Positions 3,552 through 24,012 of a stretch of DNA of 24,012 nucleotides are shown one piece after another; position 1 is the first letter of the stretch; the number at the start of each line of letters is the position of its first letter. The notes under the pieces are model-generated. The model saw only the letters and a program-made list of their open reading frames with translations, searched no databases and had not been told where the DNA came from. Location: the IMG/VR virus record IMGVR_UViG_2675903504_000004, positions 1 through 24,012 of that record; one strand, written 5' to 3'. Position numbers and translations under genes: made by a program. This DNA comes from a virus. Its lineage: Duplodnaviria; Heunggongvirae; Uroviricota; Caudoviricetes.

Positions 3552-3554
3552 AGA

Positions 3555-5323: not shown

Positions 5324-5324
5324 T

Positions 5325-6033: not shown

Positions 6034-6036
6034 AAT

Positions 6037-6704: not shown

Positions 6705-6799
6705 GCTGCTTTCTCCTGAAATAGAGGGCGGTGGACGGGGTTTTGATGTGGCAGTGCCTTTCGCCACCCCGTGCCGCCCGTGCGCGGGGGCACGTTCTG

Positions 6800-7450
6800 T
6801 CAGCGGCTGTCATTGCGCAGTCTGCGCTCCAGCTGCTGTTTGTCTTTTTTCACGCCACAGCGGGGATCAAGCTGTAACGCATGGTTGAGATGATTAAGGG
6901 CGGAAGCCGGATTGCTTTCACTCAGGACAGCGCCAATCGCTTTATGCAGACGCGCCCGTGACTGGTCCGGCATATCCAGACCGTCTGTCAGCTCCAGCGT
7001 CTGCAACAACAGATCGGCATCAAAGCCGGTGGCGGCAAGCATTGCGCTCTGCGCGGCGTCTGCCATTTCCTCTGCCAGCACGGTCTGCACGTTGCGGTTA
7101 CCCAGCGGCATCACCCAGCCATGACGCAGGGCATGACGCCCGATCTCCAGCGCCCCGGCATAATCTCCGGCATCAATGCGCCACAGCATCACGTACATCA
7201 GCACGTCATCCTGTTGAGCGCCTCCGGCAGCCAGGACACCCTCTGCCCAGGCGGCGTACTTCGGCAGCAGCTCCACCTTGATTTCCGCTTTTTTGACCGT
7301 GGACTGAACGCCCTTGAGACGGCGGCGGTCTTCCGCCAGTTGCAGCAGCATCAGGTCATAGCCCGATGCGTGGCGAACACTGCCGCCCTCGCGGGCGGCC
7401 TGTTCAGCCTGAACGCGCAGGCGATGCTGCCGTGCGGGACTCAGGCTCAT
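6800..7450 (-). CDS. M: Terminase small (endonuclease) subunit gpM
   Basis: 216-aa protein; ...QQDDVLMYVMLWRIDAGDYAGALEIGRHALRHG... matches P2 gpM as remembered. Confidence 0.9.
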   Translation of the reverse strand: MSLSPARQHRLRVQAEQAAREGGSVRHASGYDLMLLQLAEDRRRLKGVQSTVKKAEIKVELLPKYAAWAEGVLAAGGAQQDDVLMYVMLWRIDAGDYAGALEIGRHALRHGWVMPLGNRNVQTVLAEEMADAAQSAMLAATGFDADLLLQTLELTDGLDMPDQSRARLHKAIGAVLSESNPASALNHLNHALQLDPRCGVKKDKQQLERRLRNDSR

Positions 7451-7453
7451 GGA

Positions 7454-8512: not shown

Positions 8513-8528
8513 CAGGTTTTGTGCTCCA

Positions 8529-9362
8529 TCAGCAATTGGTCAGAGTGTCAGCGGGGGCGTTACCGCCTGTTGCACGCTGGCGGTAGTCCTGGCGGCTGTC
8601 TTCATGACTCAGCTTATTCACCAGTTCTTTAAAGGCGGTTTGCTGCTCCTGCAGAGCAGTCTCCAGCTCAGACAGGCGTTCTTCCTGTTCAGCCAGGGAT
8701 TTTTCGGTGCGTGTGCTCAGGTTCTGCTGCTCAGTGGCGACCAGCTCCACGGCCTTATGCACATCAGAGAACCGGGCATCGTCTGACTGCTCTTTTTTGG
8801 TGAACAGCGCCGTGACGCGGGCAAACAGGGACGGTTTGTCATCCTGGACTTCTTCCAGTTCGATCACCGTTTCCTCTGCAGCGGTAAAAAGATTGGCGGG
8901 ATTCTGCTTGCAGTTTGCCAACGGGTTATGGGCTGCACTGGCGCTGAATGTCAGCATTTCCGTACCCAGACTGGCTGGATCATCAGTGGCAGCCAGGCCA
9001 ACCAGGTAGGCTTTGCCCGTATCAGCGAACTTCGGGCTGACTTCCATAGAGGTGAATAATTTCTGGCCTTTTTTCACCAGCTCCACCAGGGACTCCGTTG
9101 GCTCAACGTCGGCATACAGCGCCATCTTGCCTGCCAGCGGGCCTTCCGTGATTTCTTCAGCAAACAGCGCCGTCACCTTGCCGTAGCGGTTAAAGGTGCT
9201 GTCCGGCAGATAAGACTTGATGTGCTCAAGGTTAATCAGCGCGGTATACACCGCCGGGTTGTAGCTGGCTGCCATCTGTTCCAGCCATTCACGCTGGATT
9301 TCGCGTCCGTCGGTGGTGGCACCTTCCACCCCGATGCGAAAACGCTTTGCTTTCACTGTCAT
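8529..9362 (-). CDS. O: Capsid scaffolding protein gpO
   Basis: 277-aa protein MTVKAKRFRIGVEGATTDGREI... with a coiled-coil, acidic C-terminal half; sits at the P2 O position, divergent from P. Confidence 0.9.
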   Translation of the reverse strand: MTVKAKRFRIGVEGATTDGREIQREWLEQMAASYNPAVYTALINLEHIKSYLPDSTFNRYGKVTALFAEEITEGPLAGKMALYADVEPTESLVELVKKGQKLFTSMEVSPKFADTGKAYLVGLAATDDPASLGTEMLTFSASAAHNPLANCKQNPANLFTAAEETVIELEEVQDDKPSLFARVTALFTKKEQSDDARFSDVHKAVELVATEQQNLSTRTEKSLAEQEERLSELETALQEQQTAFKELVNKLSHEDSRQDYRQRATGGNAPADTLTNC

Positions 9363-9440
9363 GAGCCGTGCTCCGTTAGAAAAAACTTACTGGAGCCTTA
9401 TGGTTGCGGTGATGGGGGCAGTGAAACAATGCGCGGTATT

Positions 9441-9458
9441 TGTACCGACAACCACACA
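9441..9458 (-). promoter_or_regulatory. Candidate late-promoter activator site (TGT-N12-ACA) in the O/P divergent intergenic region
   Basis: TGTACCGACAACCACACA in the 142-bp O-P gap; its position fits a late promoter for O if the site is centred near -55. Confidence 0.4.
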
Positions 9459-9504
9459 AACCGCAGGCGGGGAAAGCCTTCATTCAAGGCTGTAGGTTTG
9501 TGCC

Positions 9505-11271
9505 ATGAACACCACACTGACACCCGCAGATCTCGATCCCCGTCGGCAGGCCATGCTGCTGTACTTTCAGGGATACCGCGTAGCCCGCATTGCTGAAATG
9601 CTGGGCGAGAAAGTTGCAACCGTTCACAGCTGGAAAAAACGCGACAAGTGGGGTGACTATGGGCCACTGGATCAGATGCAGCTCACCACCGCCGCACGCT
9701 ACTGCCAGCTCATTATGAAGGAGCACAAAGAAGGGAAAGATTTCAAAGAGATTGACCTGCTGGCGCGCCAGTCTGAGCGCCACGCGCGGATCGGCAAGTT
9801 TAACAATGGCGGCAACGAAGCCGACTTAAACCCTAACGTCGCCAACCGCAACAAAGGCCCGCGCCGTCAGCCGGAAAAAAATGTCTTCACCGATGAACAG
9901 ATTGAGAAGCTGGAAGAAATCTTCCATTCCTCCATGTTCAACTACCAGCGCCACTGGTGGGAAGCCGGAAAAACCAACCGCATCCGCAACCTGCTGAAGT
10001 CACGCCAGATCGGCGCGACCTTTTACTTTGCCCGTGAAGCCCTGATTGACGCTCTGCTTACCGGACGTAACCAGATTTTCCTTTCCGCCAGCAAGGCACA
10101 GGCCCACGTCTTTAAGCAGTACATCATCGACTTCGCCAAAGAAGTGGAAGTGGAGCTGAAAGGCGATCCGATGGTGCTTCCCAACGGGGCCACACTGTAT
10201 TTCCTCGGCACCAATGCCCGCACGGCCCAGAGTTACCACGGCAACCTGTATCTGGATGAATATTTCTGGATACCGAAATTCCAGGAGCTGCGCAAAGTGG
10301 CTTCCGGTATGGCTATTCACAAAAAATGGCGACAAACCTATTTTTCCACGCCATCCAGCCTGACACACAGTGCTTATCCGTTCTGGTCCGGTGCGCTATT
10401 CAACCGTGGGCGCAATAAAGCCGACAAGGTGGACATCGACCTGTCCCACAGCAATCTGGCTCCAGGCCTGCTGTGTGCAGACGGGCAATACCGCCAGATA
10501 GTCACCGTGGAAGATGCGGTGCGCGGCGGCTGTAACCTGTTCGACCTTGACCAGTTGCGCATGGAATACAGCCCGGACGAATACCAGAACCTGCTGATGT
10601 GTGAATTCGTGGACGATCTCGCGTCCGTGTTCCCGCTCAGCGAGCTGCAGGCGTGCATGGTGGACAGCTGGGAAGTCTGGACCGACTTTCATGCACTGGC
10701 CCTGCGCCCGTTTGGCTGGCGCGAAGTGTGGATCGGTTATGACCCGGCAAAAGGTACGCAAAACGGCGACAGCGCCGGGTGCGTGGTGGTGGCTCCGCCA
10801 GCCGTGCCGGGCGGTAAGTTCCGCATTCTTGAGCGTCACCAGTGGCGCGGGATGGACTTCCGTGCCCAGGCGGACGCCATCAAAAAACTGACTGAACAGT
10901 ACAACGTGACCTATATCGGTATCGACTCGACAGGTGTCGGTCACGGGGTTTATGAGAACGTAAAAGCGTTCTTTCCTGCCGTCCGGGAGTTTGTCTACAA
11001 CCCCAACGTTAAAAACGCCCTGGTACTCAAGGCCTACGACATTATCAGCCACCGCCGTCTGGAGTTTGACGCCGGACACACCGACATTGCGCAGTCATTC
11101 ATGGCAATCCGTCGCGCAACCACCGCCAGTGGCAACCGCCCGACCTATGAAGCCAGCCGCAGCGAAGAAGCCAGCCACGCCGATCTGGCCTGGGCAACGA
11201 TGCACGCACTGTTTAACGAACCGCTGCAGGGCGAGTCCGCCAATACCAGCAATATTGTGGAGATTTTTTGA
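9505..11271 (+). CDS. P: Terminase large (ATPase) subunit gpP
   Basis: 588-aa protein of P2 gpP size, in the expected divergent position and co-oriented with Q; assigned by length, synteny and overall resemblance to P2 gpP. Confidence 0.95.
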   Translation: MNTTLTPADLDPRRQAMLLYFQGYRVARIAEMLGEKVATVHSWKKRDKWGDYGPLDQMQLTTAARYCQLIMKEHKEGKDFKEIDLLARQSERHARIGKFNNGGNEADLNPNVANRNKGPRRQPEKNVFTDEQIEKLEEIFHSSMFNYQRHWWEAGKTNRIRNLLKSRQIGATFYFAREALIDALLTGRNQIFLSASKAQAHVFKQYIIDFAKEVEVELKGDPMVLPNGATLYFLGTNARTAQSYHGNLYLDEYFWIPKFQELRKVASGMAIHKKWRQTYFSTPSSLTHSAYPFWSGALFNRGRNKADKVDIDLSHSNLAPGLLCADGQYRQIVTVEDAVRGGCNLFDLDQLRMEYSPDEYQNLLMCEFVDDLASVFPLSELQACMVDSWEVWTDFHALALRPFGWREVWIGYDPAKGTQNGDSAGCVVVAPPAVPGGKFRILERHQWRGMDFRAQADAIKKLTEQYNVTYIGIDSTGVGHGVYENVKAFFPAVREFVYNPNVKNALVLKAYDIISHRRLEFDAGHTDIAQSFMAIRRATTASGNRPTYEASRSEEASHADLAWATMHALFNEPLQGESANTSNIVEIF

Positions 11272-12302
11272 TGGGAAAGAGTAAGAAAAACCGCACTGCG
11301 GCGACGAATCAGATCCAGCATAAAAACCAAACTTCAGCCGAAGCATTCAGCTTCGGCGATCCCGTTCCTGTTCTGGACCGCCGAGAATTACTGGACTATG
11401 TGGAATGCGTACAGATGGACCGTTGGTATGAGCCGCCCGTCAGCTTTGACGGACTGGCGCGCACCTTCCGCGCTGCCGTGCATCACAGTTCCCCGATTGC
11501 AGTAAAGTGCAACATTCTGACCAGTACCTATATCCCTCATCCTTTGCTCAGCCAGCAGGCTTTTTCGCGTTTTGTGCAGGACTATCTGGTATTTGGCAAC
11601 GCCTATCTGGAGAAACGCACGAACCGCTTCGGTGAAGTGATCGCCCTTGAACCTGCGCTGGCAAAATACACCCGACGCGGATTAGACCTGGATACCTACT
11701 GGTTTGTGCAATACGGTATGACAACCCAGCCGTATCAGTTCACGAAAGGCAGCATTTTTCATCTGATGGAACCGGATATTAATCAGGAGATCTACGGTCT
11801 GCCCGGCTATCTTTCTGCCATTCCGTCAGCCCTGCTCAACGAGTCCGCCACGCTGTTCCGTCGCAAGTATTACATTAACGGCAGTCATGCGGGCTTTATC
11901 ATGTACATGACCGATGCCGCGCAAAACCAGGAGGATGTGAACAACCTCCGCAATGCGATGAAAAGCGCCAAAGGTCCAGGCAACTTCCGCAACCTGTTTA
12001 TGTACTCGCCTAACGGCAAAAAGGACGGGCTTCAGATCATCCCATTGTCAGAAGTCGCGGCGAAGGATGAATTTCTTAATATCAAGAACGTGAGTCGGGA
12101 TGACATGATGGCAGCGCACCGCGTGCCGCCTCAGATGATGGGGATTATGCCTAATAATGTTGGGGGGTTTGGGGATGTGGAGAAGGCTAGTCGTGTTTTT
12201 GTTCGGAACGAGCTGATGCCTCTACAAAAAAGATTCCAAGAAGTAAATGAATACTTTGACGGGAACATAATCAGCTTTGAAGAATACAAACTGACCATCT
12301 AA
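11271..12302 (+). CDS. Q: Portal protein gpQ
   Basis: 343-aa protein; ATG at 11271 overlaps the P stop (TGATG); the ORF-track start 11268 is TTG. Size and position match P2 gpQ. Confidence 0.95.
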   Translation: MGKSKKNRTAATNQIQHKNQTSAEAFSFGDPVPVLDRRELLDYVECVQMDRWYEPPVSFDGLARTFRAAVHHSSPIAVKCNILTSTYIPHPLLSQQAFSRFVQDYLVFGNAYLEKRTNRFGEVIALEPALAKYTRRGLDLDTYWFVQYGMTTQPYQFTKGSIFHLMEPDINQEIYGLPGYLSAIPSALLNESATLFRRKYYINGSHAGFIMYMTDAAQNQEDVNNLRNAMKSAKGPGNFRNLFMYSPNGKKDGLQIIPLSEVAAKDEFLNIKNVSRDDMMAAHRVPPQMMGIMPNNVGGFGDVEKASRVFVRNELMPLQKRFQEVNEYFDGNIISFEEYKLTI

Positions 12303-12341: not shown

Positions 12342-14108
12342 TTAATTATTATCGTATAACTCCTGAATTTTTGCTGGATTAGCAAAAAACCTTGCAGGAT
12401 AAGCATTTGGATAATTATCTTCGATATAATTTTCTGTCCTAGCTATTAATGCTGCTAAATTAGCAGTGATTTGTGCTGAATCAGGAGCAAGCTGAATGGT
12501 ACTATTCTGTAAATCTGACACCATATTCAACAGCACTGAAGCATAATATCTATTACCATGAGTTATTATTAAATGACGGCGACTATGCGTTGATTTATCT
12601 GTAGCTGCTAAAGTTGAGCTAATAGCACGTTCTATCACACGAAAATGGTTAACAGCATTTATTAACTTGATACCACTTAATCGCGGATTGAAAATTGTTC
12701 TATATAATGACCCTTCAAAATTTTCAAAAAACCTACCACGATTAGATTTTAAAGTTGCAACTATAGTATTATTTTTACTTAAGCAAGCTAGAGCATTCAA
12801 AGCCTCATCGAGATCAATTACCTTGGCGTTAGACTGTAAATAATCCTCATCGGTTCGCAATAATTGGTATTGATACCCTTCAAGCACAAGCTCTCTCGCC
12901 AGTCTATGCTGATCGGGTTGTTGTGAAGCAAAATCTCTTCCTAAAACTCTATTCTGGAAATTATTAGCTCTGGTTATTGCATTGGCATTGAGATCATTTA
13001 CATCATTATTAATTTCAATAAAACGAACAGGGACTTTAACTTGATAAATTCTATCGCCTAGCACATCCATAACACTGCCTAAACTACTCACAGTTTGCGC
13101 GCCGTTGATCACACTCACATCTTTAAAATCGAAAACCCCTCTTTCAGTGCCTGCAGCTGCGTTTCTTCTGTGAGGAATTAACTCGTTCACTAGTAACGTA
13201 ATACCGTTATTGTAAAACCAAAACATTTCTGGATTATCAATTGCAGTTTTTTTTATTTCTTCGTTAACATCTGTCTTACCAAGCATATTTCTTATGTTTT
13301 TCGTAAAAAGGCGGGTTCCATATTGTTTCCACCAATTCCCAACCTGGTCCCCAGCTAAAGTTCCATAAAATGCTCTGTAAGGTTCATTAATAAACCCATA
13401 GCGTTCAACTTCTACGCCATCCAAATCAATTTGACCTCTTGAGCCAGTCTGCAACCAATGGACTAAATCCTCTGATGAAATCAAATGAACTTGAAACCCC
13501 CATTCTTCTTTCGGTGATTCTGTCGGGGTAAACGACGCTTCATTTAATTCACGTTGCCACTCTTGCATATCACGTAAAATATCTTCTGAGGCACCTTTTT
13601 TCCCTGTGTGAGTCATAGCGAAGATAAATTTATAATCAAATGAATTAAGAGCTGCGCTTATATCTGAACTCTTATCTTGAAGAATCTGGTCAAAAAGTTC
13701 ATATCGTTCATTCTGAAGTTTTTCACAAGCATCCTTGAAGCACACAAAATCAGGTCTGCTCCAAGTACCATTTCCAGCCTGATTAAATTTGGACTGAACG
13801 ACTACAACAATTTTTTCACTATGATTTATGACTATGCCATCAATGCCTCCATCCTCAGAACTGTCGCATACAGACTCACCTGCATGCTTTTCATCAACAC
13901 CACCAAGTTGATACATCGTAAACGCCGCCAGAGCCCTACTTGCCATTTTAATATTGTAATCTTGTTGACTGGGTTGGCACTCTCGCTTATGAACATAGTC
14001 TTCAAACCTTTCTCTCAAAACACTACCAAGCCTTAGAGCTATAACTTGCGCCGTCGCCGCTGCAGCTACAGCGTTATCCTCAACTCGGAGATCTACAACG
14101 AATGCCAT
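12342..14108 (-). CDS. Cargo protein, 588 aa: N-terminal PD-(D/E)xK-like nuclease motif plus large C-terminal region with AIPR-like (abortive infection) features; candidate anti-phage defence gene
   Basis: AT-rich ORF between portal Q and the cos-like site. Start at ATG 14108 (AAGGA at about 7 nt; ORF-track start 14135 is TTG). N-terminal ...EDGGIDGIVINHSEKIVVVVQSKF... fits a D...(E/Q)xK nuclease signature. Central ...VSVINGAQTVSSLG... is recalled as AIPR-family-like (from memory, unverified). No counterpart in the P2 core gene set. Confidence 0.55.
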   Translation of the reverse strand: MAFVVDLRVEDNAVAAAATAQVIALRLGSVLRERFEDYVHKRECQPSQQDYNIKMASRALAAFTMYQLGGVDEKHAGESVCDSSEDGGIDGIVINHSEKIVVVVQSKFNQAGNGTWSRPDFVCFKDACEKLQNERYELFDQILQDKSSDISAALNSFDYKFIFAMTHTGKKGASEDILRDMQEWQRELNEASFTPTESPKEEWGFQVHLISSEDLVHWLQTGSRGQIDLDGVEVERYGFINEPYRAFYGTLAGDQVGNWWKQYGTRLFTKNIRNMLGKTDVNEEIKKTAIDNPEMFWFYNNGITLLVNELIPHRRNAAAGTERGVFDFKDVSVINGAQTVSSLGSVMDVLGDRIYQVKVPVRFIEINNDVNDLNANAITRANNFQNRVLGRDFASQQPDQHRLARELVLEGYQYQLLRTDEDYLQSNAKVIDLDEALNALACLSKNNTIVATLKSNRGRFFENFEGSLYRTIFNPRLSGIKLINAVNHFRVIERAISSTLAATDKSTHSRRHLIITHGNRYYASVLLNMVSDLQNSTIQLAPDSAQITANLAALIARTENYIEDNYPNAYPARFFANPAKIQELYDNN

Positions 14109-14289
14109 TAATTTTTCCTTATAGAATATGTACAACGTTAGCAGTGATTAAAAGGTTACTCGTTAAGCGGAAATTGTACTACAACATTCTACTAAATATG
14201 GATATATCAATGAGTAAGAACTCATCTTTGCTAACTCACATACATTGTTAAAAATACTTAGCTTCGCTGTTCACCCCGTCGCCGCGCGC

Positions 14290-14308
14290 TCGTATCCCCG
14301 CCACGCCT
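14290..14308 (-). other. Candidate cos (cohesive-end) site of the P2/186 type
   Basis: Minus strand reads GGCGTGGCGGGGATACGAG, close to the remembered P2 (GGCGAGGCGGGGAAAGCAC) and 186 cohesive-end sequences. It lies in a short GC-rich island between two AT-rich cargo genes and is oriented toward Q, as in P2. Confidence 0.5.
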
Positions 14309-14356
14309 GCCCGCTTTGTGTAGTGGTTTTCATGCACCTGCATGACATAAGCAAAA

Positions 14357-14376
14357 GCCCGCCAGCTCTGGCGGGC
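14357..14376 (-). terminator. Rho-independent terminator downstream of the HNH-domain ORF
   Basis: Perfect GC-rich inverted repeat GCCCGCCAG-CT-CTGGCGGGC, followed on the minus strand by TTTTGC. Confidence 0.55.
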
Positions 14377-14489
14377 ATCAGCAAAAACGATCCTCAAACG
14401 ATCATGCGATTTCATGCGGCATAGACATGCGTTGGCAAAAATGTACGAAATACTCAGCTTATAGGAAATGGTCTTTTTCCAACCTCCAG

Positions 14490-15209
14490 TTAGCCAAAGC
14501 AGAAACCAATATTGCAATTTGAAACTCCACAGTTGTGAAATTGATGTGGACCTACTCTTAGCTTGTGTTCGTCTCCTACAATCCGAGTCCCCTTAACCAA
14601 CATATCTAATCTTTCCACAATCAATCTTTCAGGCACATCAACTTTAATAATTAAACGAGGACCTTTCCTTTTTTCTATAATAGTTATTCTAGGACCGACA
14701 ACCTGAACATCCCAATGCCTTGCACTACAAACCCACTCATTCTTAATTAATTCAAGATTAACAATACCTTGACTATCGTAAAATTTACCCGAAATAAGAA
14801 AAGCATTATTTTCTTTTTCAATGGTTAACAATGGCTCATTTTGAAACATTATTGGTACAGTACAGGATTCAAACGTCGCACCACCAAATATTATTGTTGG
14901 ATGCCTATCAGAAAAGTCCAATATATCTGCCACATTCCCTTTTTGTAAGGCTGCAGGAGATTCCATTGCTTTAATTATTTTCTCTTTAGAGTAAAGACGT
15001 TTCGTTACTTTCGCATGGCACGTAGGACAAAGTAGTGCTATTGCATTTGGAGAGTGCTCCTTTGCATCAGCGTATGTGGGAATTACATGCTCATACTCAA
15101 CAATGGGAGAAGCACAAACAACGCAACCGAAGCCACAGCGCTGCCTTACCTCCAGTTTTACAGGTTCAGGAATTGTTCTAGATAACCCATGCTTGTTAAT
15201 AGTTGTCAT
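14490..15209 (-). CDS. HNH endonuclease-domain protein with uncharacterised ~170-aa C-terminal region; cargo gene
   Basis: 239-aa AT-rich ORF; N-terminal ...RQRCGFGCVVCASPIVEYEHVIPTYADAKEHSPNAIALLCPTCHAKV... shows the Cys pairs and His/Asn/His pattern of an HNH zinc-finger nuclease. ATG at 15209 with AAGGTAAGG upstream; own terminator downstream. Confidence 0.65.
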   Translation of the reverse strand: MTTINKHGLSRTIPEPVKLEVRQRCGFGCVVCASPIVEYEHVIPTYADAKEHSPNAIALLCPTCHAKVTKRLYSKEKIIKAMESPAALQKGNVADILDFSDRHPTIIFGGATFESCTVPIMFQNEPLLTIEKENNAFLISGKFYDSQGIVNLELIKNEWVCSARHWDVQVVGPRITIIEKRKGPRLIIKVDVPERLIVERLDMLVKGTRIVGDEHKLRVGPHQFHNCGVSNCNIGFCFG

Positions 15210-15331: not shown

Positions 15332-15565
15332 TTAATGCAGCCAGCTGTCGTCTTCCCACACCTTCTGCATAATTTTCATCACTTGCTTCCTTTCTTCGTC
15401 CAGTTGCAGTCCGGTCAGTTCCACACCGTTAGAGCTACCTTTGCGGATGCGAATTACCGTTTTTGGATATAGGGGGCGCAGATTGCGGTAAAGCTCGGAT
15501 TCAAGGGCGTCCAGGGTAGACTGGCTAATCTTCTGCTCTTTATCGATCATTATTTCAATGCGCAT
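15332..15565 (-). CDS. dinI: DinI-family protein
   Basis: 77-aa protein MRIEIMIDK...TLDALESEL...VIRIRKGSSNGVELTG...DEERKQVMKIMQKVWEDDSW aligns with E. coli DinI as remembered. Start at ATG 15565 with GAGGTGA upstream; the ORF-track start 15637 is an upstream extension. Confidence 0.8.
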   Translation of the reverse strand: MRIEIMIDKEQKISQSTLDALESELYRNLRPLYPKTVIRIRKGSSNGVELTGLQLDEERKQVMKIMQKVWEDDSWLH

Positions 15566-15575
15566 AAAAGTCACC

Positions 15576-15764
15576 TCAGCTGATGACATCCATTGAGCGG
15601 TTGTATTCGTGGGTTCTGATTTTTGCCATGAGTTCATCTGTCAGTTCAGAAACCCACTGCAAAGCCAGCCCCTTCTCTTCATCACTACACTCACTAGCCG
15701 CTACAAGTTTAAGAAAAAAATCAATGCGCTGGAGCTTCAAAGACTCCAAAAAATAGTCCTGCAT
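15576..15764 (-). CDS. Small SOS-regulated protein (62 aa), first gene of the LexA-controlled operon; possible Tum-like antirepressor
   Basis: ATG at 15764 with TAGGAGGAAAG upstream and the LexA box about 45 bp further upstream. The ORF-track start 15866 would place the LexA box inside the coding region. Function inferred only from position. Confidence 0.5.
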   Translation of the reverse strand: MQDYFLESLKLQRIDFFLKLVAASECSDEEKGLALQWVSELTDELMAKIRTHEYNRSMDVIS

Positions 15765-15807
15765 CTTTCCTCCTATGACACCACAAGCAACACTGTATGT
15801 ATAACCA

Positions 15808-15823
15808 CTGTTTATATTTACAG
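15808..15823 (-). promoter_or_regulatory. LexA (SOS) box CTGT-N8-ACAG with overlapping promoter
   Basis: CCACTGTTTATATTTACAGTAT matches the LexA consensus TACTGTATATATATACAGTA in the CTGT/ACAG arms and AT-rich centre. It overlaps a TATACT/TTTACA promoter-like region on the minus strand. Confidence 0.75.
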
Positions 15824-15917
15824 TATATAATAATCTTACTGATGTAAAACGTTTTTTTACGTTCATCAGCCTGATATGCCTGGTATTATTAAGAGCACGA
15901 ATTGTTAACCCGCGTAA

Positions 15918-18332
15918 TTAATACAGGTTTCGCCACTTATCATCTTCCTGCAAACGCTGGTTCCGATAGAAGATACGCAGGCCTGCTCCTGACGGAATAC
16001 TGCCGCCGCGAAGGAGTAAATCGACCTCTTTCTCGCTGCCATCAAATCCTCTGGACTTCAGTTCATAGACGAGCTGCTGTCGCTGATGGTCTGTAATTCG
16101 CTGTTTGTAGTCTTTACGCCGTTTCGGTTTCACCAGGCGTAACCTTGCAGCCAGTTCCCGGCGCTCTTTTTTGCTCATACTGTGCAGGTAATCGTGCAAC
16201 TCCTTGTCATCCATGCGGGTAATGTCCGTCCTGGTATCCCCATCAGCTGATTTGTCTTTCCCTTGTTGGTTCAAATTTTCAGCAAGGGGACAGTTATTGC
16301 CACGAGTCCAAGGGGCGCAAGCGCCCTGGTCGGCTGCCGCCTCCTGAACGTCAACGGCCTTACGAACCATTTTCCACTTCACTGCATGAGTGCAGATCTT
16401 GCCCTCTGCAATGGGTGACCAGATGCCATAAATACGAATGCCGTGATCGCCATAGGCGGTCGGCTCTTCGTTGATTTCATAAGCGGTTCTGATCAGGTGA
16501 TATTTGCGGGGAACCAGTACGCCGCCCTGCTTCATGATGTAGGTGGCAAAACAACCAGCATCAGCAGCAGCCAGGATTGCATCAAGGCGCGGGTTATCCA
16601 GTACCGGCGCACCTGCTTTTTTGTCCCCCTGTTGCCTTGCCGCCTGACCAGCCAGCAATCGCAGTTCACGGTAAGCCTGACGCCCCGGAATGCCAAAGAA
16701 GCGGAATTGCTGAACACGATGCAGAGACGCCCAGGCATTAACGTATTCAGCATTATCACGCAGGGATTTCCCCGTTTCCTTGCTGATCTCGCCAGCCAGA
16801 CCACGCCCGTCAATGTTCTTACTGATGTATTTCGCGATGTAGCTTGTTGGCGTACCTTTGCGCGGGTTAATCAACTCAGACTTAAAGCGCGGCCCAGTGT
16901 TATTGCCCAGCTCCTCGCGGTCTTCACGGATGGCAAACTTACGCAGTAATACAGTGATGGCGCGGCGGTCTTTTTTGCGCATAAAACACAACAGGTGCCA
17001 GTGAACTGTACCGTCATGATGCGGCTCAGCCACCCGCACGCCATACCAGCGCAATCCGGCTTTGTGCATCGCCTTACGAAATGCAGCAAACATGCCGACC
17101 AGGTAATCACTACTTTGTCTTACCGTCGCATTTGTCCAGGTTGGGTTGGGCCTGCCGTTATTTAGCGTGGAATGGAAACGTGACGGACAGGTGATGGTGT
17201 AGAAAACGGCACAGTCACTGCGCATTTCTGCGATAAGCTCCAGACCTTTAACACAGGCCATCATCTCATTGCGGCGATGCGCCGGGTTGCTGCTGCTGGC
17301 GTTTACCACATCTTCCATATCCAGCGTGTCACCGTCTTCGTTCACCAGTTCATGAGAACGGAAAAACTCCAGCGACTTACGGCGCTGCTCACGTTTATGC
17401 ATCACGGCTTCATAGCTGACATAGGGAGATGCTTTTTTGCTGACCAGACAGACAGCACGCAACTGCTCTTCCCGCCATTCGCAACGCATCTTCCATAATT
17501 TCCTATGCCACCAGTCGGCGCACAGCATACGCGCCAGCGAACCCGGAATGAGTTCATAGGGCACGGGTTTACGGCGGTTTCTTTTCCGACGGAGTTGCTC
17601 AAACGCAGGCGGGATGACATCCAGTCGCAGGGTTTCTGCTGCCACCTTTTCCCATGTCTTGCGGATTTCTTCTGGCTTAACATCATCGGTGGCGTACAAA
17701 TCACCACAAGCGGCATCAAGACACATGCTCATATGCGCAGCGACAAGAGTAGACAGGCGTTTCACCTGATCCTGACTCATTTCAGGCAGGATCAGCAGGC
17801 CGTCCAGCCCTTCATGGCTTGCCATAAAGCGAAAAGAAGTGGATAGCTGACTCTCGCGTACATGCTCCAGTCGTTCCAGACATGGCTTAATCGTCTCACG
17901 CAAATAGCGGGAATAAGCCTTTGGCCTGCCCAGGCTGCTGAAGTATTCAATACGTTGCATCAGCGGCTTGCTGATATGGGAAGGCTGGGCGCTGACATCT
18001 GCCAGAATGACCATGTCTGGGTTAAAACGCTGCTGCTCATGCGCCAGCTTTGCCCGACTAATGAGCTTATCCTGCTCCATTTCGCGCTGGACAGGATCAC
18101 GGGATTCATTAAAGAAATAACGCTCCCAGACCTGATCACTCAGTGCCTCACGGCGCAGCAGTTCCTGCTCGTTATCGGCAGCGTACAGAGTGATCAGGTT
18201 TGAAAGCGCAGAAACCGGCGCAACTTCCGCCGGGTCCAGATAAGGGTTAATGGCCTTTTTCGGGCTGTTCCATGAGAACGATGCGGCAGCCTCGTTAAAG
18301 CCGCAGCAGTTGTTCATATCGGCATGGTTCAT
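15918..18332 (-). CDS. A: Replication initiation endonuclease gpA (rolling-circle initiator)
   Basis: 804-aa protein with ...[17 protein letters not shown]... and ...[13 protein letters not shown]..., which match the conserved P2 gpA motifs. Confidence 0.95.
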
Positions 18333-19186
18333 GCACGTACTCCGTACACGGCAGAACTATCCACGCCACGCGAATAATCAAATCCCACCCAGCAGCGCGG
18401 CCCGGAAACAGCGATGATTTCTGTTGCAGATTTACTCTCACCAGCTGCTACGCCGATGCTGCGTTTTGCCTTGATGTAGTGGTGAGTAAAATTGCGATAC
18501 AGCGAACGGATCAGGGATGTGTCACTGTTAGAAATAATGACCGGATGTCCTTCTGATGACCGATGTTCAAGAACGGATGCCAGGTGATACTGGTCATCTT
18601 CAGTGAAGCCGTCAGTGTGATAACCGGAAAACGTGCCGTCATACGGCGGATCGCAATACACCACATCCCCCGCCTTCAACATCGCTAGCGTTTCATCAAA
18701 GCTGGCGCAGATAAACGTTGCCCGCTGGGCTTTTTCTGCAAATGCGCGAATTTCTTTTTCAGGAAAATACGGATTTTTATAATTACCGTAGGGAATGTTG
18801 AAATGCCCGCTCTTGTTATAGCGACATAAACCACGGTAACCGTGACGATTGAGATACAGGAAATATACCGCTTTCATGAAATCAGTAATTTCAGTTGAGT
18901 AATTAAACTCCTGCCTTATGTTGTAATAAGCCACCTCCCTGTTTGCTTCCTCAAATAAAGCTCTGGCGCGAGATATAAACGATTCACAATCAGCAGCAAC
19001 CTTTTTATAGAGGTTGATTAAATCAGGATTAATATCCGCAACAAGATAGCTGGGGTACTCCGTCTCCATCATCACTGCACAGGAACCCGCGAAAGGTTCA
19101 ACCAGTCGCGGGCCAGCAGGAAGGTGTTTTTTCAGTTCGGACATAATTGCGGTTTTATTTCCCGCCCATTTCAGGATGGTGCTCAT
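18329..19186 (-). CDS. dam: DNA adenine methyltransferase, Dam family
   Basis: Protein from [11 protein letters not shown]... with [16 protein letters not shown] and VVYCDPPY motifs, closely paralleling E. coli Dam. Start at ATG 19186 (GGAGGTG upstream); the stop overlaps the A start. Confidence 0.9.
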
Positions 19187-19410
19187 ACAGCACCTCCGTT
19201 GTAATGTTTGCCTTTCAGCTCTGCGATTTCCTGACAGGTAATGCAAAGCTGCACTCCAGGAATGGCGCGGCGGCGTGCTGGCGGAATTGGCGCTTCACAT
19301 TCAATGCAAAGCACGCGGGACACGCCCGGTGTTTTGGCACGGGCAGCACGGATATGGCGCTGGCGTTCTTCTTCAACGCGCTGCTGTACGAGATCCATTG
19401 CATCAGCCAT
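19183..19410 (-). CDS. TraR/DksA-family C4 zinc-finger protein
   Basis: 75-aa protein with CIECEAPIPPARRRAIPGVQLCITCQ (C-x2-C...C-x2-C); its stop overlaps the dam start. Confidence 0.8.
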   Translation of the reverse strand: MADAMDLVQQRVEEERQRHIRAARAKTPGVSRVLCIECEAPIPPARRRAIPGVQLCITCQEIAELKGKHYNGGAV

Positions 19411-19643
19411 TAGTGGATCTCCTGCGCTTCGTTCTGGATTGCTTCAGCGGTCACACGCAGCAGTTCTGCCGCTTCGACGTGGTTTAGCTGGCGGGATGTG
19501 ATATGACACGCAAGACTATCAAGGCGGGCAGCCATTGCTTCAGCCCTTGCTCGGCGTTCTTCCAGACGAGCCTCTGTCAGTAAAATATTAAGCCCTGCGT
19601 CATCCGGTCCGATTTTAGTCGTGAGGGTTTCAATATTACGCAT
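19410..19643 (-). CDS. Hypothetical early protein (77 aa)
   Basis: ORF with ATG at 19643 preceded by AGGAGA, in the early operon between CII and A; no recognisable motif. Confidence 0.5.
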   Translation of the reverse strand: MRNIETLTTKIGPDDAGLNILLTEARLEERRARAEAMAARLDSLACHITSRQLNHVEAAELLRVTAEAIQNEAQEIH

Positions 19644-19710
19644 AATCAATTCTCCTGAATTTAGATAAAGGGATGCCCGGCGGGTTTACGCCATTAATTT
19701 CATTAGCTGG

Positions 19711-20052
19711 TTAATTCGGCATGGTTAGCCGTCTGGGAAATAAGCTCACCACTGCACGAAAATGATTCATTGCTTTAATCAACTCCCGCTTTTCGTCAGT
19801 GGTCAGCTCATTAATGCTGATGCTATGACGTTCAGCTGGAATTTTTGCCATAAAGAATATGGCAGCCAGTGCCCGTTTATTTTGTTCGCTATTAATATCC
19901 CGTGGATCACGCATATCTTTAATAAACCGCTCAAGCTCTGACTCAATATTAAGACCAAAAACTTTCGCTCTTAATTCCGCAATGTGATTAAGTCCATTCA
20001 GGCGTTCACCGGGGCTTAATGGAACAGTCGCCGCAGCGCCTTCAATAGCCAT
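19711..20052 (-). CDS. Hypothetical early protein (113 aa)
   Basis: ORF with ATG at 20052 and a G-rich SD, in the early operon; no recognisable motif. Confidence 0.5.
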   Translation of the reverse strand: MAIEGAAATVPLSPGERLNGLNHIAELRAKVFGLNIESELERFIKDMRDPRDINSEQNKRALAAIFFMAKIPAERHSISINELTTDEKRELIKAMNHFRAVVSLFPRRLTMPN

Positions 20053-20216
20053 TTGTTCCCCCGTTTTTTCGTTGATAGTTCTGCCAACAATTCATCTTGC
20101 GAACGGCACGGATGCCAGCGTTTACCATCCTCACCCATGATCCAGCCGTGACCGTAGTGCATTGCCGGACTTTGTTTTACCAGCAGCGATGCAAATGATG
20201 GTTCTTTCGTCAGCAT
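20016..20216 (-). CDS. Hypothetical small early protein (66 aa)
   Basis: ATG at 20216 with GAGGTG 5 nt upstream, 7 nt after the cII stop; basic C-terminus; this is the position of fil in phage 186. Confidence 0.45.
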   Translation of the reverse strand: MLTKEPSFASLLVKQSPAMHYGHGWIMGEDGKRWHPCRSQDELLAELSTKKRGNKWLLKALRRLFH

Positions 20217-20223
20217 AAGCACC

Positions 20224-20733
20224 TCACAGCAAACCGAATGAAGCACCGAGGCCAGTTACAGTATCAACTGCACTTGCCATCGCAGGATTAACCTGTAAAC
20301 GGGCCTGCAATGAAACAGCAGCTAACGCCATCAGTCGTGTAACAGAGTTAATGCTGCTGATAGCATCACGACGACCTGCACTGGTTTTTACATCGCCAGA
20401 TACCGCACCTGCAGCAACACGCCCGATCTCTGCGGTTGCACTCATGACGTAATGTGGCAGTTTCTCTTTTGCCACCTCATTAATCGGTACACATGGCAGG
20501 CAGTGAATCTGTGCCAGAAAACCGTCTACCAGCGTTGAATCTTCCGTCAGATCGGTAAGTAGCCAGATATCTGGCGCATTGAGCTGATGCGGTTGATCTG
20601 GGTTGAGTTTGTTTCGCAGAGTCTGGACATTCATTCCTGCACGTTCTGCCAGCTTCGCCATATTGTGACGAAGTGCAAAAGCTCTACAGGCTTCATCAAA
20701 ATGCGGGTGTTTGGAAATCTTATAATCAAACAT
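20224..20733 (-). CDS. cII: Phage regulatory protein CII (186 CII / CP76 family)
   Basis: 169-aa protein MFDYKISKHPHFDEACRAFALRHNMAKLAERAGMNVQTLRNKLNP...; size, HTH-like N-terminus and position after the Apl/Cox-like gene match 186-type CII. Confidence 0.75.
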   Translation of the reverse strand: MFDYKISKHPHFDEACRAFALRHNMAKLAERAGMNVQTLRNKLNPDQPHQLNAPDIWLLTDLTEDSTLVDGFLAQIHCLPCVPINEVAKEKLPHYVMSATAEIGRVAAGAVSGDVKTSAGRRDAISSINSVTRLMALAAVSLQARLQVNPAMASAVDTVTGLGASFGLL

Positions 20734-20765
20734 GCTACCCCCTTAGAAAGTTCTCATAATTGAAC

Positions 20766-21008
20766 TTACTTACCAACAATGACGCGGAAGTTGGAATGAC
20801 CGAGGGATTCACGGACCTGATCGGTTTTGTACATTAAATAACGCAGGTTTACGCGGCCTTTGTTTTTTTCTTTCTTGACCATGTATTTAGCAAGCTGACC
20901 ATGGTGAATTTTTTGATACACGGAGCCGCGGGAGATACCTTCCCATTCCGCGAACTCTGCAGGCGTAGCCATCTCTTTTGGTACACGAATTGAAATATCA
21001 GTGCTCAT
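20766..21008 (-). CDS. apl: Apl/Cox-like excisionase and switch regulator
   Basis: 80-aa protein; ...TPAEFAEWEGISRGSVYQKIHHGQLAK... parallels the P2 Cox HTH region (PYQEFAKLIGKSTGAVRRMIDKGKLP); first gene of the rightward lytic operon, divergent from cI. Confidence 0.7.
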   Translation of the reverse strand: MSTDISIRVPKEMATPAEFAEWEGISRGSVYQKIHHGQLAKYMVKKEKNKGRVNLRYLMYKTDQVRESLGHSNFRVIVGK

Positions 21009-21064
21009 AGTGCAGTATCTCCCGATTAAGGTTTGGTTTACGTCGTTTTATCTCGTTTTACTTG

Positions 21065-21112
21065 ATTCAATATTTGATACATCGAGATACTACGATCCAA
21101 TATTTGATACGT
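21065..21112. promoter_or_regulatory. Lysis-lysogeny switch region with direct repeats (candidate operators)
   Basis: Two 17-bp direct repeats TYCAATATTTGATACRTC spaced about 30 bp apart, plus a CGTTTTA x2 repeat nearby, in the 119-bp gap between divergent apl and cI. Confidence 0.5.
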
Positions 21113-21127
21113 CAACAGGATTAAAAA

Positions 21128-21760
21128 ATGATACAGGTAAAGGTTGGAGAGAATACAGGGGGAAGAGAGGCTATCCATAGACTAATGGCAGCCTATGATT
21201 TCAAGTCCAGACAGCAACTTTGCGATCACTTAGGCGCATCAAAAAGCACCATGGCAAACAGATACTTAAGAGATAGTTTTCCTGCAGAGTGGGTGATTCA
21301 GTGCGCCTTGGAAACAGGAGTTTCTTTACTGTGGCTAACCACCGGACAGGGGGAGCCAGGTCCAAACATTGAACCTAAAAAAAATATCAATTCCGTGAAC
21401 TCCAGCAAGGTTGTACCTCTTTCTGAACTAGTATCTCCTGAAATTGACAAGGCGACTCTCAACGGTGGTTTATTGGTCGATGCTGGAAAAGCAATCATTG
21501 ATAGCAGCATACTCCCCTCAGACTCAAGCAACCTACTGCTGGTGACTACTTCTGGTGATTCTTATTTAATAGATCGCAACCAAACACCACCAGTAAATGG
21601 TATGTGGTTAGTCGATATCGACGGGATAAAAAGCATCGTTAAATTGACCCGACTCCCGGGAAACAAATTAGTAGTGCATCAGGATGATTCATCGTTTGAG
21701 TGCGGTCTGGATGACATTGAGGTAGTAGGCCGCGCACTGAAAATCATTAAGAGCCTTTGA
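21128..21760 (+). CDS. cI: Immunity repressor CI (186-type: N-terminal HTH plus C-terminal oligomerisation domain)
   Basis: 210-aa protein with an HTH-like segment (RQQLCDHLGASKSTMANRYLR), AGGA SD, directly upstream of int and divergent from apl. Confidence 0.75.
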   Translation: MIQVKVGENTGGREAIHRLMAAYDFKSRQQLCDHLGASKSTMANRYLRDSFPAEWVIQCALETGVSLLWLTTGQGEPGPNIEPKKNINSVNSSKVVPLSELVSPEIDKATLNGGLLVDAGKAIIDSSILPSDSSNLLLVTTSGDSYLIDRNQTPPVNGMWLVDIDGIKSIVKLTRLPGNKLVVHQDDSSFECGLDDIEVVGRALKIIKSL

Positions 21761-21761
21761 T

Positions 21762-22781
21762 ATGACCATCAGAAAACAGCCGAACGGAAAATGGTTGTGT
21801 GAGTGCTATCCCAATGGACGCAATGGCAAGCGCGTGCGTAAGCAATTTGCCACGAAAGGCGAAGCCATTGCGTTTGAAAGCTTCACAATGGAAGAAGTGA
21901 ATAAAAAACCGTGGTTGGGTGAAAAGGATGATCGGCGACGCCTATCAGAATTAATTGAGCTTTGGTATTCCCTGTATGGTCAGACACTCGCAGACCCCAA
22001 GCGCCTCATGGCGAAACTTAGAATTATCTGTAATGGTCTAGGCGACCCCATCGCCTCTGAGCTGACAGCAGGTGATTTCACAAAATATCGGGAAGCCAGA
22101 TTAAAGGGGGAGGTCCAAAATGAAGACGGTTCGTTCATGTCACCCGTTAAACCTCGCACAGTTAATCTTGAGCAGCGTAACCTGTCATCGGTGTTCGGTA
22201 CATTGAAAAAACTAGGGCACTGGTCCGCACCAAACCCGCTGGCAGGGCTTCCAACCTTCAAAATTGCTGAAGGTGAATTGGCTTTTCTTTCCACGGACGA
22301 AATCAAACGCCTGTTGGCTGCATGTGCTGAATCTCAAAGCCCGAGCCTACTAATGATTACCAAAATATGCTTAGCTACCGGCGCACGGTGGAGTGAAGCC
22401 GAAAAACTGCAGGGCCATCAGTTATCCAAATACCGCATCACTTATACCAAGACGAAGGGCAAGAAAAACCGTACCGTGCCGATATCTCAGGAGCTGTACA
22501 ACGAACTTCCTAAAAACCGAGGGAAGTTATTCTCGCCATGCAGAAAAGCCTTTGAGCGTGCAGTAAAGCGGGCCGGTATTGAGCTTCCAGAGGGTCAATG
22601 CACCCATGTATTACGTCATACATTTGCCAGCCATTTTATGATGAACGGAGGAAACATACTTGTTCTTAAAGAGATTCTCGGTCATACAGATATAAAAATG
22701 ACAATGGTTTATTCTCATTTTTCCCCAGACCATCTTGAAGATGCCGTTACCAAAAACCCTTTACATATGTTAACTATTTGA
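21762..22781 (+). CDS. int: Tyrosine integrase (P2/186 Int family)
   Basis: 339-aa protein; N-terminus ...YPNGRNGKRVRKQFATKGEAIAFE... parallels P2 Int; catalytic-type motifs GARWSEA, HVLRHTFAS and MTMVYSH are present. Confidence 0.9.
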   Translation: MTIRKQPNGKWLCECYPNGRNGKRVRKQFATKGEAIAFESFTMEEVNKKPWLGEKDDRRRLSELIELWYSLYGQTLADPKRLMAKLRIICNGLGDPIASELTAGDFTKYREARLKGEVQNEDGSFMSPVKPRTVNLEQRNLSSVFGTLKKLGHWSAPNPLAGLPTFKIAEGELAFLSTDEIKRLLAACAESQSPSLLMITKICLATGARWSEAEKLQGHQLSKYRITYTKTKGKKNRTVPISQELYNELPKNRGKLFSPCRKAFERAVKRAGIELPEGQCTHVLRHTFASHFMMNGGNILVLKEILGHTDIKMTMVYSHFSPDHLEDAVTKNPLHMLTI

Positions 22782-22791
22782 GCTTACCAAA

Positions 22792-24012
22792 ATGGATATT
22801 AAAAACAAAGTCAATAAAGAAAAGTTATTTGAGAACCATTTAAACTCATTATTAAAACAAGTCATTTCCGAACCAAAATTAAACCCTCCACTTATAGTAC
22901 ATAGAGATATAATAAGTGACTTCACTGAACGTTGCGATAAGTATCTAAAAACAATAATTAAATACAAAAGCAACAATAAAGATGGGATGCCGAATTTTGA
23001 TGAATTAATCAGCAAAGTTAAGAACATTCAAAATGGAATAACATTATCACTTGAAAGTTTTTTATCAGGTGATATCAAGTCAGCATATGACCACTTTGAT
23101 AAAACATTCTCTGATAACTCAACAATCCAACACATACATCGCATCACTACTCCACTCAGTAGCATTTGCAATCATAAAAAACCATTATTTCGAGTTAGAA
23201 AAAGTGAAAATCCTCTAACGTCAAGAGATGAAATTTTCCATATTCCATTCTCCAATAGACATTTTGTTAGTGCACAAAGATATTCAGTCGCTGGCTTACC
23301 ATGTTTATATCTTGGCACTTCTGTTTATGTTTGTTGGCAGGAGATGGGAAAACCAGATTTTGACAAGCTTTTTATTTCATCATTTACTACCAGTGAAACT
23401 GAATATAAAGTCTTAAACTTTGCATCACAGCTTTTGTTACATCCCTCACCAAATTACGCCGACGAAAATAAACTAGCCGAAACAAATAGAGTAAAGGCCT
23501 CTTATCTCATTTTCTGGCCTTTAATTATTGCATGTAATTATTTAAAAAATCATCGTTCTGCAACATTCATACAAGAGTACATTATCCCTAATTTGTTGAT
23601 GCAATGGATTAGTAGAAAAACTTACTCGAAAATTGTCGGTGTAGCTTACTTCTCTACAAAAATGCCTAATTCACGATTAAGTAACCGCTCAATAAATGTT
23701 GTATTTCCACCCAAAGTTACATATGAACAAACGGTAAAACAAAATTTTTGCCCTAAACTCTCCACATTATTCGACTTTACGCCACCTATTTCGTGGCAGG
23801 TCTTAAAAACATTAGATCATTCATCAATAACAGAAAATTCAATAGAATTGATGATGTCAAAGAGATATCTTCAAAGTCAAGAAAAACTGTCTGGAATTAA
23901 AAACTTCGAAGAGGACATTGTAAAACTATACCCCTTAACTGATTTTTACAAACTCGAAAGAAGTATTGATATGCTATTTGAATATAAAAAGATAGATAAC
24001 CCCATACTATAA
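22792..24012 (+). CDS. AT-rich 406-aa protein with RES-domain-like core (candidate NAD-targeting toxin or abortive-infection effector) and novel N- and C-terminal extensions
   Basis: ORF starts 10 bp after the int stop with much lower GC than the phage backbone. Core ...RHFVSAQRYSVAGLPCLYLGTSVYVCWQEMG... fits the RES pattern R-aromatic...G.P.LY...E. No upstream Xre-type antitoxin gene. Confidence 0.55.
   Translation: MDIKNKVNKEKLFENHLNSLLKQVISEPKLNPPLIVHRDIISDFTERCDKYLKTIIKYKSNNKDGMPNFDELISKVKNIQNGITLSLESFLSGDIKSAYDHFDKTFSDNSTIQHIHRITTPLSSICNHKKPLFRVRKSENPLTSRDEIFHIPFSNRHFVSAQRYSVAGLPCLYLGTSVYVCWQEMGKPDFDKLFISSFTTSETEYKVLNFASQLLLHPSPNYADENKLAETNRVKASYLIFWPLIIACNYLKNHRSATFIQEYIIPNLLMQWISRKTYSKIVGVAYFSTKMPNSRLSNRSINVVFPPKVTYEQTVKQNFCPKLSTLFDFTPPISWQVLKTLDHSSITENSIELMMSKRYLQSQEKLSGIKNFEEDIVKLYPLTDFYKLERSIDMLFEYKKIDNPIL

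Follow-up and report, generated by a model that had tools for sequence, protein, structure and literature searches.

The open reading frame (ORF) of 406 amino acids (aa) that closes the DNA stretch analysed here is predicted to encode a protein with a RES/ADP-ribosyltransferase-fold core, and it is carried inside a P2-family prophage, between the integrase gene (int) and the phage attachment site (attP). The stretch, hereafter the window, comprises 24,012 nucleotides (nt), positions 1 to 24,012 of IMG/VR record IMGVR_UViG_2675903504_000004. We consider it reasonably probable that the ORF product acts as a stand-alone defence effector, which is triggered by infection and depletes nicotinamide adenine dinucleotide (NAD+), and that its gene is accessory cargo of a prophage integrating at ssrA. 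By analogy, it is most likely a relative of the aRES anti-phage proteins and not a toxin-antitoxin (TA) toxin or a host gene. aRES are stand-alone proteins of 300-600 aa that combine RES with PF18870 (HEPN_RES_NTD1). They protect E. coli with growth arrest, and NAD+ is depleted to nicotinamide and ADP-ribose-1''-phosphate (ADPR-1''-phosphate) (Osterman et al., bioRxiv 10.64898/2026.01.28.702374).

Evidence for a RES-fold core

The AlphaFold2 (AF2) model of the ORF product has a pLDDT of 86.8 and a pTM of 0.89. Its best match in Foldseek is MbcT, and the five best structural matches are all TA toxins, namely MbcT (6fkg_B, score 9.3), P. putida Res (9r35_A, 8.3), VPA0770 (8gug_A, 8.1), NatT (8qnl_C, 8.0) and ParT (6d0h_A, 7.9). 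Among the viral structures of BFVD, Foldseek found nothing significant.

The profile-profile comparison was made directly with aRES. One profile was built from the E. coli UC5 aRES (Table S4 of Osterman et al.) and its relatives, all annotated with PF08808 (28 sequences aligned), and the other from 60 distant relatives of the ORF product that share 25-46% identity with it. Hhalign aligned the two over 254 columns at 92.3% (E 5.6e-7), and the cores alone at 89.2% (E 2.2e-6). R163, Y173, E184, S288 and N302 of the ORF product are thereby aligned with R215, Y225, E236, S334 and N349 of aRES. The first three are present in all 60 distant relatives; position 288 is Ser in 53 of them and Thr in 7, and N302 is found in 56. 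The motifs around these residues correspond as well: LFRVRK (132-137) to aRES LFRARV, AQR163YSVAGLPCLY173LGTS...E184 to SGR215MNAQGISVFY225GATS...E236, YFS288T to FKS334T and IN302VV to YN349VV. The core additionally holds R134/R136 and F149-H150-I-P152. The RES clade is marked by an Arg/Glu/Ser signature, and Tyr and Asn replace in it the Ser and Glu of ADP-ribosyltransferases (ARTs) (Iyer et al., PMC9503650). Because R163, Y173 and N302 are kept, along with E184 and S288, the ORF residues fit the R-Y-N pattern of this clade.

Taken together, the predicted fold, the profile-profile homology and the catalytic residues establish a RES core in the ORF product, as far as a structural model and sequence comparison can. 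A preliminary description of the window had suggested that the core fits a RES signature, and all three lines of evidence bear this out. It had also named a lack of RES similarity in profile searches as an outcome that would speak against the assignment; the comparison with aRES did find such similarity, at 89-92%. Single-sequence scans of the protein with Pfam, NCBIfam and PADLOC assigned no family. Among its relatives, PF08808 is the sole recurring Pfam family, with weak matches in 26 of 44 relatives of 44-71% identity (best E 0.011) and in 21 of the 60 distant ones (best E 3.3e-5).

The core is flanked by two helical regions. The N-terminal domain is presumed to be a sensor or autoinhibitory module. 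In the C-terminal region the AF2 model places helices at residues 351-366, 372-382 and 384-395, and the motif of this region persists in the distant relatives (Y380 in 60/60, F385 in 59/60 and E389 in 55/60). No relation between it and the C-terminus of aRES was found. With ~118 and ~96 residues, the two regions are about as long as previously estimated (~140 and ~100). We considered the N-terminal domain as a zinc-less HEPN_RES_NTD1, into which the full-length hhalign alignment ran; a comparison of the domains only gave 2.3%, and the candidate was rejected. The modelled protein is a compact helical and alpha/beta globule, in which no signal peptide or secretion-associated domain was seen.

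Position of the gene inside the prophage

The stop codon of the ORF coincides with the end of the window. IMG/VR contigs were therefore collected by exact match to the final 45 bases of the ORF; four were obtained, two of them 100% identical to the window over the compared stretch. In these four and in E. coli contig JASNGJ010000104.1, 116 bp of AT-rich DNA opening with TGGCGACAAATTGGCGGCAGA lies directly 3' of the stop codon and is followed by a 45-bp core, ATGTAGGAATTTCGGACGCGGGTTCAACTCCCGCCAGCTCCACCA. Rfam recognizes this core as the 3' end of tmRNA (ssrA) with E 1.4e-12.

The 116-bp stretch starts with tandem TGGCGACA / TGGCGGCA repeats and is conserved behind unrelated cargo genes. In phage Cartapus, further copies of the TGGCGACA-type repeat, in both orientations, are found on the far side of the ssrA core. 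The repeats are probably arm-binding sites of Int. Arm and core follow three different cargo genes. They also recur in the Cartapus virion genome, where a homologue of the ORF stands between int and the same core, and phage DNA with more TGGCGACA repeats comes after it.

Beyond the core, JASNGJ010000104.1 continues into ypjA, as in every E. coli genome. Contig L100, one of those identical to the window, continues into other sequence, which matches a Salmonella locus where a P4-type integrase island comes next. Homology between the two contigs stops within ten bases of the core. Further, the RE-2010 record has an annotated terminal att repeat immediately beyond its homologue. The diverging flanks, the conserved arm and core and the position of the RE-2010 repeat show the 45-bp sequence to be att core and prophage boundary. 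The order is cI - int - cargo - attP, and the gene lies inside the prophage.

The preliminary description had seen no room for attP between int and the ORF; attP indeed follows the ORF, just outside the window. The view of the ORF as a prophage moron is thus upheld by the att mapping. The alternative offered with it, a gene of an adjacent island, is ruled out by the attP arm and ssrA core behind the stop codon. The same holds for a host gene separated from int by an att site, as att lies after the ORF.

A cargo slot between int and attP

Megablast matches to sibling phages (Klebsiella Kp48xx, SEN8, Fels-2, RE-2010) end at window positions ~22759-22773, about 10-20 bp before the int stop codon, and those to Salmonella and E. 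coli P2-family phages end here as well; the break is near 22763, ~18 bp short of that stop codon. Similarity to the siblings starts again at the attP arm. Because it ends inside the last int codons, the left recombination junction of the slot seems to lie within int itself. The C-termini of int differ between prophages with different cargo. The slot is delimited to the base pair: it opens in the final ~20 bp of int and closes at the first attP arm repeat.

Close prophages differ in what the slot holds, and some of the occupants are known defence genes. E. coli prophages integrated at this ssrA/ypjA site carry GapS1 (Ecol_AZ147), a frameshifted anti-phage dCTP deaminase (G5) or, in H2, a homologue of our ORF of 421 aa with a restriction-modification pair behind it. 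Fels-2 seems to have an empty slot, in a record that stops ~170 bp past the int match. Salmonella and Cronobacter prophages have 45-47%-identical homologues at the same place, with unrelated DNA past the core. The order cI-int-cargo is common to Cartapus, RE-2010 and the E. coli, Salmonella and Cronobacter prophages.

Partner genes and expression

Genomic neighbourhoods were compared at 80 loci from one-genome-per-species contigs, covering Enterobacteriaceae, Aeromonas, Sulfurimonas, Bacteroidota, Bacillota, Planctomycetota, Acidobacteriota, Spirochaetes and Myxococcota. Neighbour genes were called and clustered, and 78 loci entered the partner count. No neighbour family is conserved family-wide among them. 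The only recurrent neighbours are P2 int (7 loci), cI (5 loci) and an upstream gene pair in Bacteroidota (7 loci), and an HTH_3 domain occurs in 2/116 neighbours. Genes for type I, III and IV restriction enzymes, DISARM DrmD, PLD-helicases and integrases occur next to distant relatives. A copy in Pectobacterium stands alone among metabolic genes, with neither cI nor int nearby.

At the ORF itself no Xre/DUF2384 or ParS-type gene adjoins; int and cI lie upstream and the attP arm downstream. This agrees with the preliminary description, which had noted that no Xre-type gene lies upstream; the genes found there are int and cI (Phage_CI_repr). No alternative-frame, nested or antisense ORF is conserved among 15 homologues. 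The idea of a hidden antitoxin was rejected on the neighbour clustering at the 78 loci together with this survey of nested ORFs. An 85-aa hydrophobic antisense ORF (22770-23027, minus strand) covers the junction of int and ORF together with 236 nt at the start of the gene. Antisense open stretches of the 15 homologues shift in position and none is conserved in place; the 85-aa ORF is probably a by-product of AT-rich sequence.

In all prophage copies the homologue begins between -17 and +10 nt from the int stop codon, with a weak Shine-Dalgarno sequence at most. A scan for promoters and terminators, made on a 99.4%-identical relative, found no motif at the int-ORF junction.

Two other arrangements were observed in the family. 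In Bacillus phage SPbeta (L007, 2285-3948), yopC encodes a 442-aa protein labelled RES domain-containing and is directly preceded by yopB, a 75-aa helix-turn-helix (HTH) gene; the superinfection-exclusion gene yopH lies near. Possibly, the yopB-yopC pair is a form of the family that is regulated or has two components. At seven Bacteroidota loci (L039, L043, L048, L051, L052, L059, L061) three co-oriented genes overlap, and the RES-like gene comes last. The two before it, ~2.5 kb upstream of the match, encode proteins of ~506 aa and ~220 aa, the latter without a match in Pfam or PADLOC. This three-gene set may be a variant of the system.

Size of the family

A word-index search gave 235 relatives at E<=1e-3, including a 100%-identical protein in E. 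coli. An exhaustive profile search gave 2,695 clusters at 50% identity, and 997 of these have E<=1e-30; most members are 360-420 aa long. The 44 relatives of 44-71% identity share ~70 invariant columns and a conserved length. Judged by this conservation, the ORF is a genuine, selected gene.

Among phage proteins, PHROG 7835 ('unknown function') matches the ORF product with E 1e-145. RE-2010 gp01, an orf of SopEPhi and Cartapus CARTA_33 are 45% identical to it, and YopC is 30% identical over 268 aa. In one relative of 611 aa (P0150), the family region (32-324) is joined to an LlaMI/MvaI-type restriction endonuclease domain at the C-terminus (388-609, Pfam 2.8e-42). Either the two are truly fused or separate genes were called as one. 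A true fusion would link the family directly to restriction-type defence.

Layout of the window

The window carries the right arm of a P2-family (186/Fels-2-like) E. coli prophage. Between 15918 and 22781 it encodes, in this order, gpA replication endonuclease, Dam methylase, a TraR/DksA zinc-finger protein, DUF2732, DUF5347, Fil, cII, an Apl/Rha-like protein, cI and int. Positions 15333-24012 are 99.36% identical (blastn) to 2542-11221 of JASNGJ010000104.1, a match of 8.7 kb in which the gene order is the same; the prophage on that contig encodes a protein identical to the product of the RES-like ORF. Guanine-cytosine (GC) content of the ORF is 0.317 (0.27 at third codon positions, GC3), compared with 0.463 in int, 0.445 in cI and 0.565 in the structural half of the window (1-11500). 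These data confirm the 406-aa ORF of low GC content, starting 10 bp past int, of the preliminary description. Features are collected in Table 1.

The classical P2 hotspot is bounded here by gpQ (portal gene, 11268-12302) and, from 15332, by the DinI-like/gpA genes. Its stretch 12342-15209, on the minus strand, has a GC content of 0.35-0.44. As this hotspot is also filled, with an AbiU/AIPR-family gene and an HNH gene, the prophage has two loaded cargo slots. In JASNGJ010000104.1 a 652-aa HATPase_c_3 protein and a C5 DNA methylase stand in place of AbiU/HNH. From the two sequences it looks as if cargo was recently swapped in the gpQ/gpA slot while the int-attP slot stayed fixed.

Table 1. Positions of the RES-like ORF, its parts and the features around it
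Feature	Sequence	Position	Strand	Remarks
RES-like ORF	window	22792-24012	+	406 aa, ATG start, TAA stop
N-terminal helical domain, aa 1-118	window	22792-23145	+	family motif G93-D-I-K-S-A98-Y
Predicted RES/ADP-ribosyltransferase-fold core, aa ~119-310	window	23146-23721	+	
R163	window	23278-23280	+	
Y173	window	23308-23310	+	
E184	window	23341-23343	+	
S288	window	23653-23655	+	
N302	window	23695-23697	+	
C-terminal helical region, aa 311-406	window	23722-24009	+	motif Y380-P-L-T-D-F385-Y-K-L-E389, family-wide
TAA stop codon	window	24010-24012	+	final bases of the window
attP P-arm, 116 bp	L100	2760-2875		TGGCGACA-type repeats; outside the window, 3' of 24012
attP P-arm	L001	6210-6328		TGGCGACA-type repeats; outside the window
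attP arm and 45-bp ssrA core	L100	2760-2920		IMG/VR contig 100% identical to the window
cI repressor, 186/Fels-2 type	window	21128-21760	+	first gene of presumed lysogenic operon; Pfam Phage_CI_repr 5.4e-31, Phage_CI_C 5.6e-28
Tyrosine integrase (int)	window	21762-22781	+	Pfam Int_N 1e-29, Phage_integrase 3.5e-24
int-ORF junction, 10 bp	window	22782-22791	+	weak Shine-Dalgarno sequence at best
AbiU/AIPR-family ORF, 597 aa	window	12342-14135	-	PADLOC AbiU 5.8e-24, Pfam AIPR 1.5e-31
HNH-domain ORF, 239 aa	window	14490-15209	-	

Proposed role and alternatives

We suggest the following course of events. In the lysogen, read-through from the cI-int operon, or translational coupling to it, would give weak expression of the gene. 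The lysogenic transcript that starts from pL in coliphage 186 covers cI and int. Because of this, and by analogy with aRES, expression of the ORF together with cI and int can be expected, and the three genes are probably co-transcribed. The N- and C-terminal domains of the enzyme would act in cis to keep it inactive, which would explain the absence of an antitoxin. Infection by a heterologous phage would then switch it on, and NAD+ would be consumed. By analogy with MbcT and aRES, the presumed reaction is phosphorolysis to nicotinamide and ADP-ribose-1''-phosphate. The infected cell would arrest and the invader would be blocked, so that the lysogen population and the resident prophage are protected. 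It is by analogy that we infer autoinhibition, trigger, NAD+ as substrate, reaction products and anti-phage phenotype. We place somewhat less trust in the phosphorolysis chemistry than in the defence role, given that the fold scores leave protein ADP-ribosylation of the ParT type possible.

A more far-reaching idea is that the ORF represents a second, large and hitherto unrecognized lineage of stand-alone RES immune effectors. Such a lineage would count at least 2,695 clusters, lie outside both Pfam/PADLOC detection and the definition of aRES, and possess sensor/regulatory domains of its own. In P2/186-like prophages it would be wired to cI-int, so that NAD+-based defence is switched on by lysogeny. 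We put this forward tentatively, as possible and as yet short of probable. Members occur in Enterobacteria, Aeromonas, Bacteroidota, Bacillota, Planctomycetota, Acidobacteriota and Spirochaetes. Given the lineage's own domains, its trigger or product chemistry may be different from those of aRES.

Several observations weigh against the proposed role. The search with Pfam RES (PF08808, gathering score 23.2 bits), which the preliminary description had recommended, was run and gave no match at E<=1 for the 406-aa protein. All scores of the relatives are below the same gathering score as well, the top individual score printed being 22.4. When the family profile was searched against PDB sequences, only spurious matches of helical-bundle and designed proteins to the N-terminal domain appeared. 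Because these searches fail, the RES assignment rests on structure prediction and profile-profile comparison. Neither PADLOC 2.0 nor NCBIfam has a model for the family, and in the literature we found no functional study of yopC, its relatives or a RES protein in P2 hotspots. The defence-type genes near distant relatives are noted as individual occurrences. Some branches of the family may work with partners, as yopB in SPbeta and the Bacteroidota pair indicate. Furthermore, PF18870 is absent from Pfam scans of 104 family sequences (44 + 60), and the invariant C8, C11, C31 and C34 of aRES (CxxC...CxxC) are without counterpart in the cysteine-poor N-terminal bundle of the ORF product. Given the absent PF18870 domain, trigger and regulation may differ from those of aRES.

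One alternative is that the ORF encodes a classical RES-type TA toxin with an overlooked antitoxin (a small ORF, an antisense RNA, cI or the fused N-terminal domain), which would serve prophage addiction. The five best structural matches, all TA toxins, are in its favor, as are the HTH gene directly before yopC in SPbeta and the fact that cI is itself an HTH protein of the same operon. Addiction modules are also common on prophages. However, the gap of 10 bp upstream and the 116 bp downstream are too short for an Xre/DUF2384 gene, and the downstream stretch is the attP arm, which non-RES cargo has in common. Further, the 78 loci show no conserved partner and a mere two HTH_3 neighbours in 116, the 15 homologues no conserved nested or antisense ORF. 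As for cI, the Pectobacterium copy has neither it nor int nearby, and siblings with the same cI-int hold other cargo. We therefore think a TA toxin quite unlikely, with the remark that its version with a fused cis-antitoxin is indistinguishable from the autoinhibition proposed here.

The RES-fold domain might also modify proteins or nucleic acids as a ParT-like or DarT-like ADP-ribosyltransferase. In this case, the ORF product would still be a defence or exclusion effector, of another chemistry and with a target in the host or the invading phage. The best structural match, MbcT, is an NAD+ phosphorylase, and the nearest profile relatives, aRES, are NAD+ depleters; the discrimination is not strong either way, and we rate such an activity as unlikely. 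Very unlikely, in our opinion, is a role in the phage life cycle, be it as integration/excision factor, as counter-defence enzyme against NAD-derived signals or as toxin against eukaryotic cells. The gene does adjoin int and attP, a homologue is present in the virulence-converting phage SopEPhi, and ART folds are common in exotoxins. Nevertheless the phage can do without it: GapS1 or dCTP deaminase takes its place in siblings that share int and attP, and the Fels-2 record ends ~170 bp past the int match. The family is also found without int in many phyla, no signal peptide or secretion domain was seen in the model, and nothing in BFVD matched.

If the NAD+-depleting defence role is confirmed, then a widespread and currently unannotated family joins the NAD+-depleting arm of bacterial immunity, and the estimated share of genomes with NAD+-depletion defence becomes higher. 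It would also offer a natural comparison with aRES, as the same catalytic core would be combined with different sensor domains. The pair of aRES and the ORF family would be informative on the triggers of partner-less RES enzymes and on the way in which they stay silent, and could show if aRad1 and NARP1-AP, two phage counter-measures, act on the ORF family too. In addition, the locus shows to the base pair how the int-attP cargo slot of ssrA-integrating P2-family prophages is delimited; cargo there probably rides, by analogy with coliphage 186, on the lysogenic cI-int transcript. Without a defensive role, the gene would just be a prophage accessory whose product has a RES fold.

Comparison with known systems

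RES-Xre toxins (MbcT/MbcA, P. putida Res/Xre, NatT/NatR, VPA0770/0769, ParT/ParS) are single-domain proteins of 140-250 aa accompanied by an Xre/DUF2384 or ParS antitoxin. The ORF, in contrast, encodes 406 aa with two extra domains and has no partner gene. Because it lacks an antitoxin gene and is twice the size, we do not count it among RES-Xre toxins. YopC and PHROG 7835/12013/37055 are direct sequence relatives, which bear database labels only ('hypothetical', 'putative RES protein', 'RES domain-containing protein'). Unlike the ORF of the window, yopC follows an HTH gene.

The int-att site of P2-like prophages was already reported as a minor defence hotspot (NAR 2026, PMC13586616). A whole-word search of the P2 hotspot paper by Rousset et al. 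2022 (PMC9122126) found no RES protein mentioned, and the passages on the hotspot in the NAR 2026 paper name none. The words RES domain, NADase and ADP-ribosyl, each searched as whole words, were absent from the DefensePredictor paper (PMC13092281). The int-attP slot was thus known beforehand and its RES-like occupant was not. The window also has AbiU-like cargo in the classical gpQ/gpA hotspot, and its int-attP slot is delimited to the base pair. Our finding is not categorically new, since partner-less RES defence and the int-att hotspot were both described in 2026.

The closest comparison is that with aRES. Like aRES, the ORF is a single gene without operon partner, falls in the range of 300-600 aa and occurs in defence contexts of Enterobacteria. 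The RES cores are homologous, with the aligned motifs LFRxR, R-x9-Y-G-x-S-x6-E, Y-x-S-T and N-V-V. On the other hand, aRES pass the Pfam RES threshold (53 bits) and the ORF family never does. PF18870 was detected in aRES UC5 and its relatives by the same kind of scan that was applied to the ORF family; these were Pfam scans, not exactly the procedure of the aRES authors, who assigned the domain by hhsearch against Pfam. The N-terminal domains, compared with each other, gave the hhalign value of 2.3% mentioned above, and the C-terminal domain with its invariant Y380 is unrelated. No entry of the aRES gene table is from B. subtilis, the species with yopC, so yopC was evidently not counted as aRES; this table (Table S2) lists IMG identifiers only, and the absence of B. 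subtilis and the few Salmonella entries in it are indirect evidence. By analogy, then, the ORF family would work like aRES and yet stand outside aRES as defined. The most fitting description is that of a large, new sister family whose members are stand-alone RES proteins.

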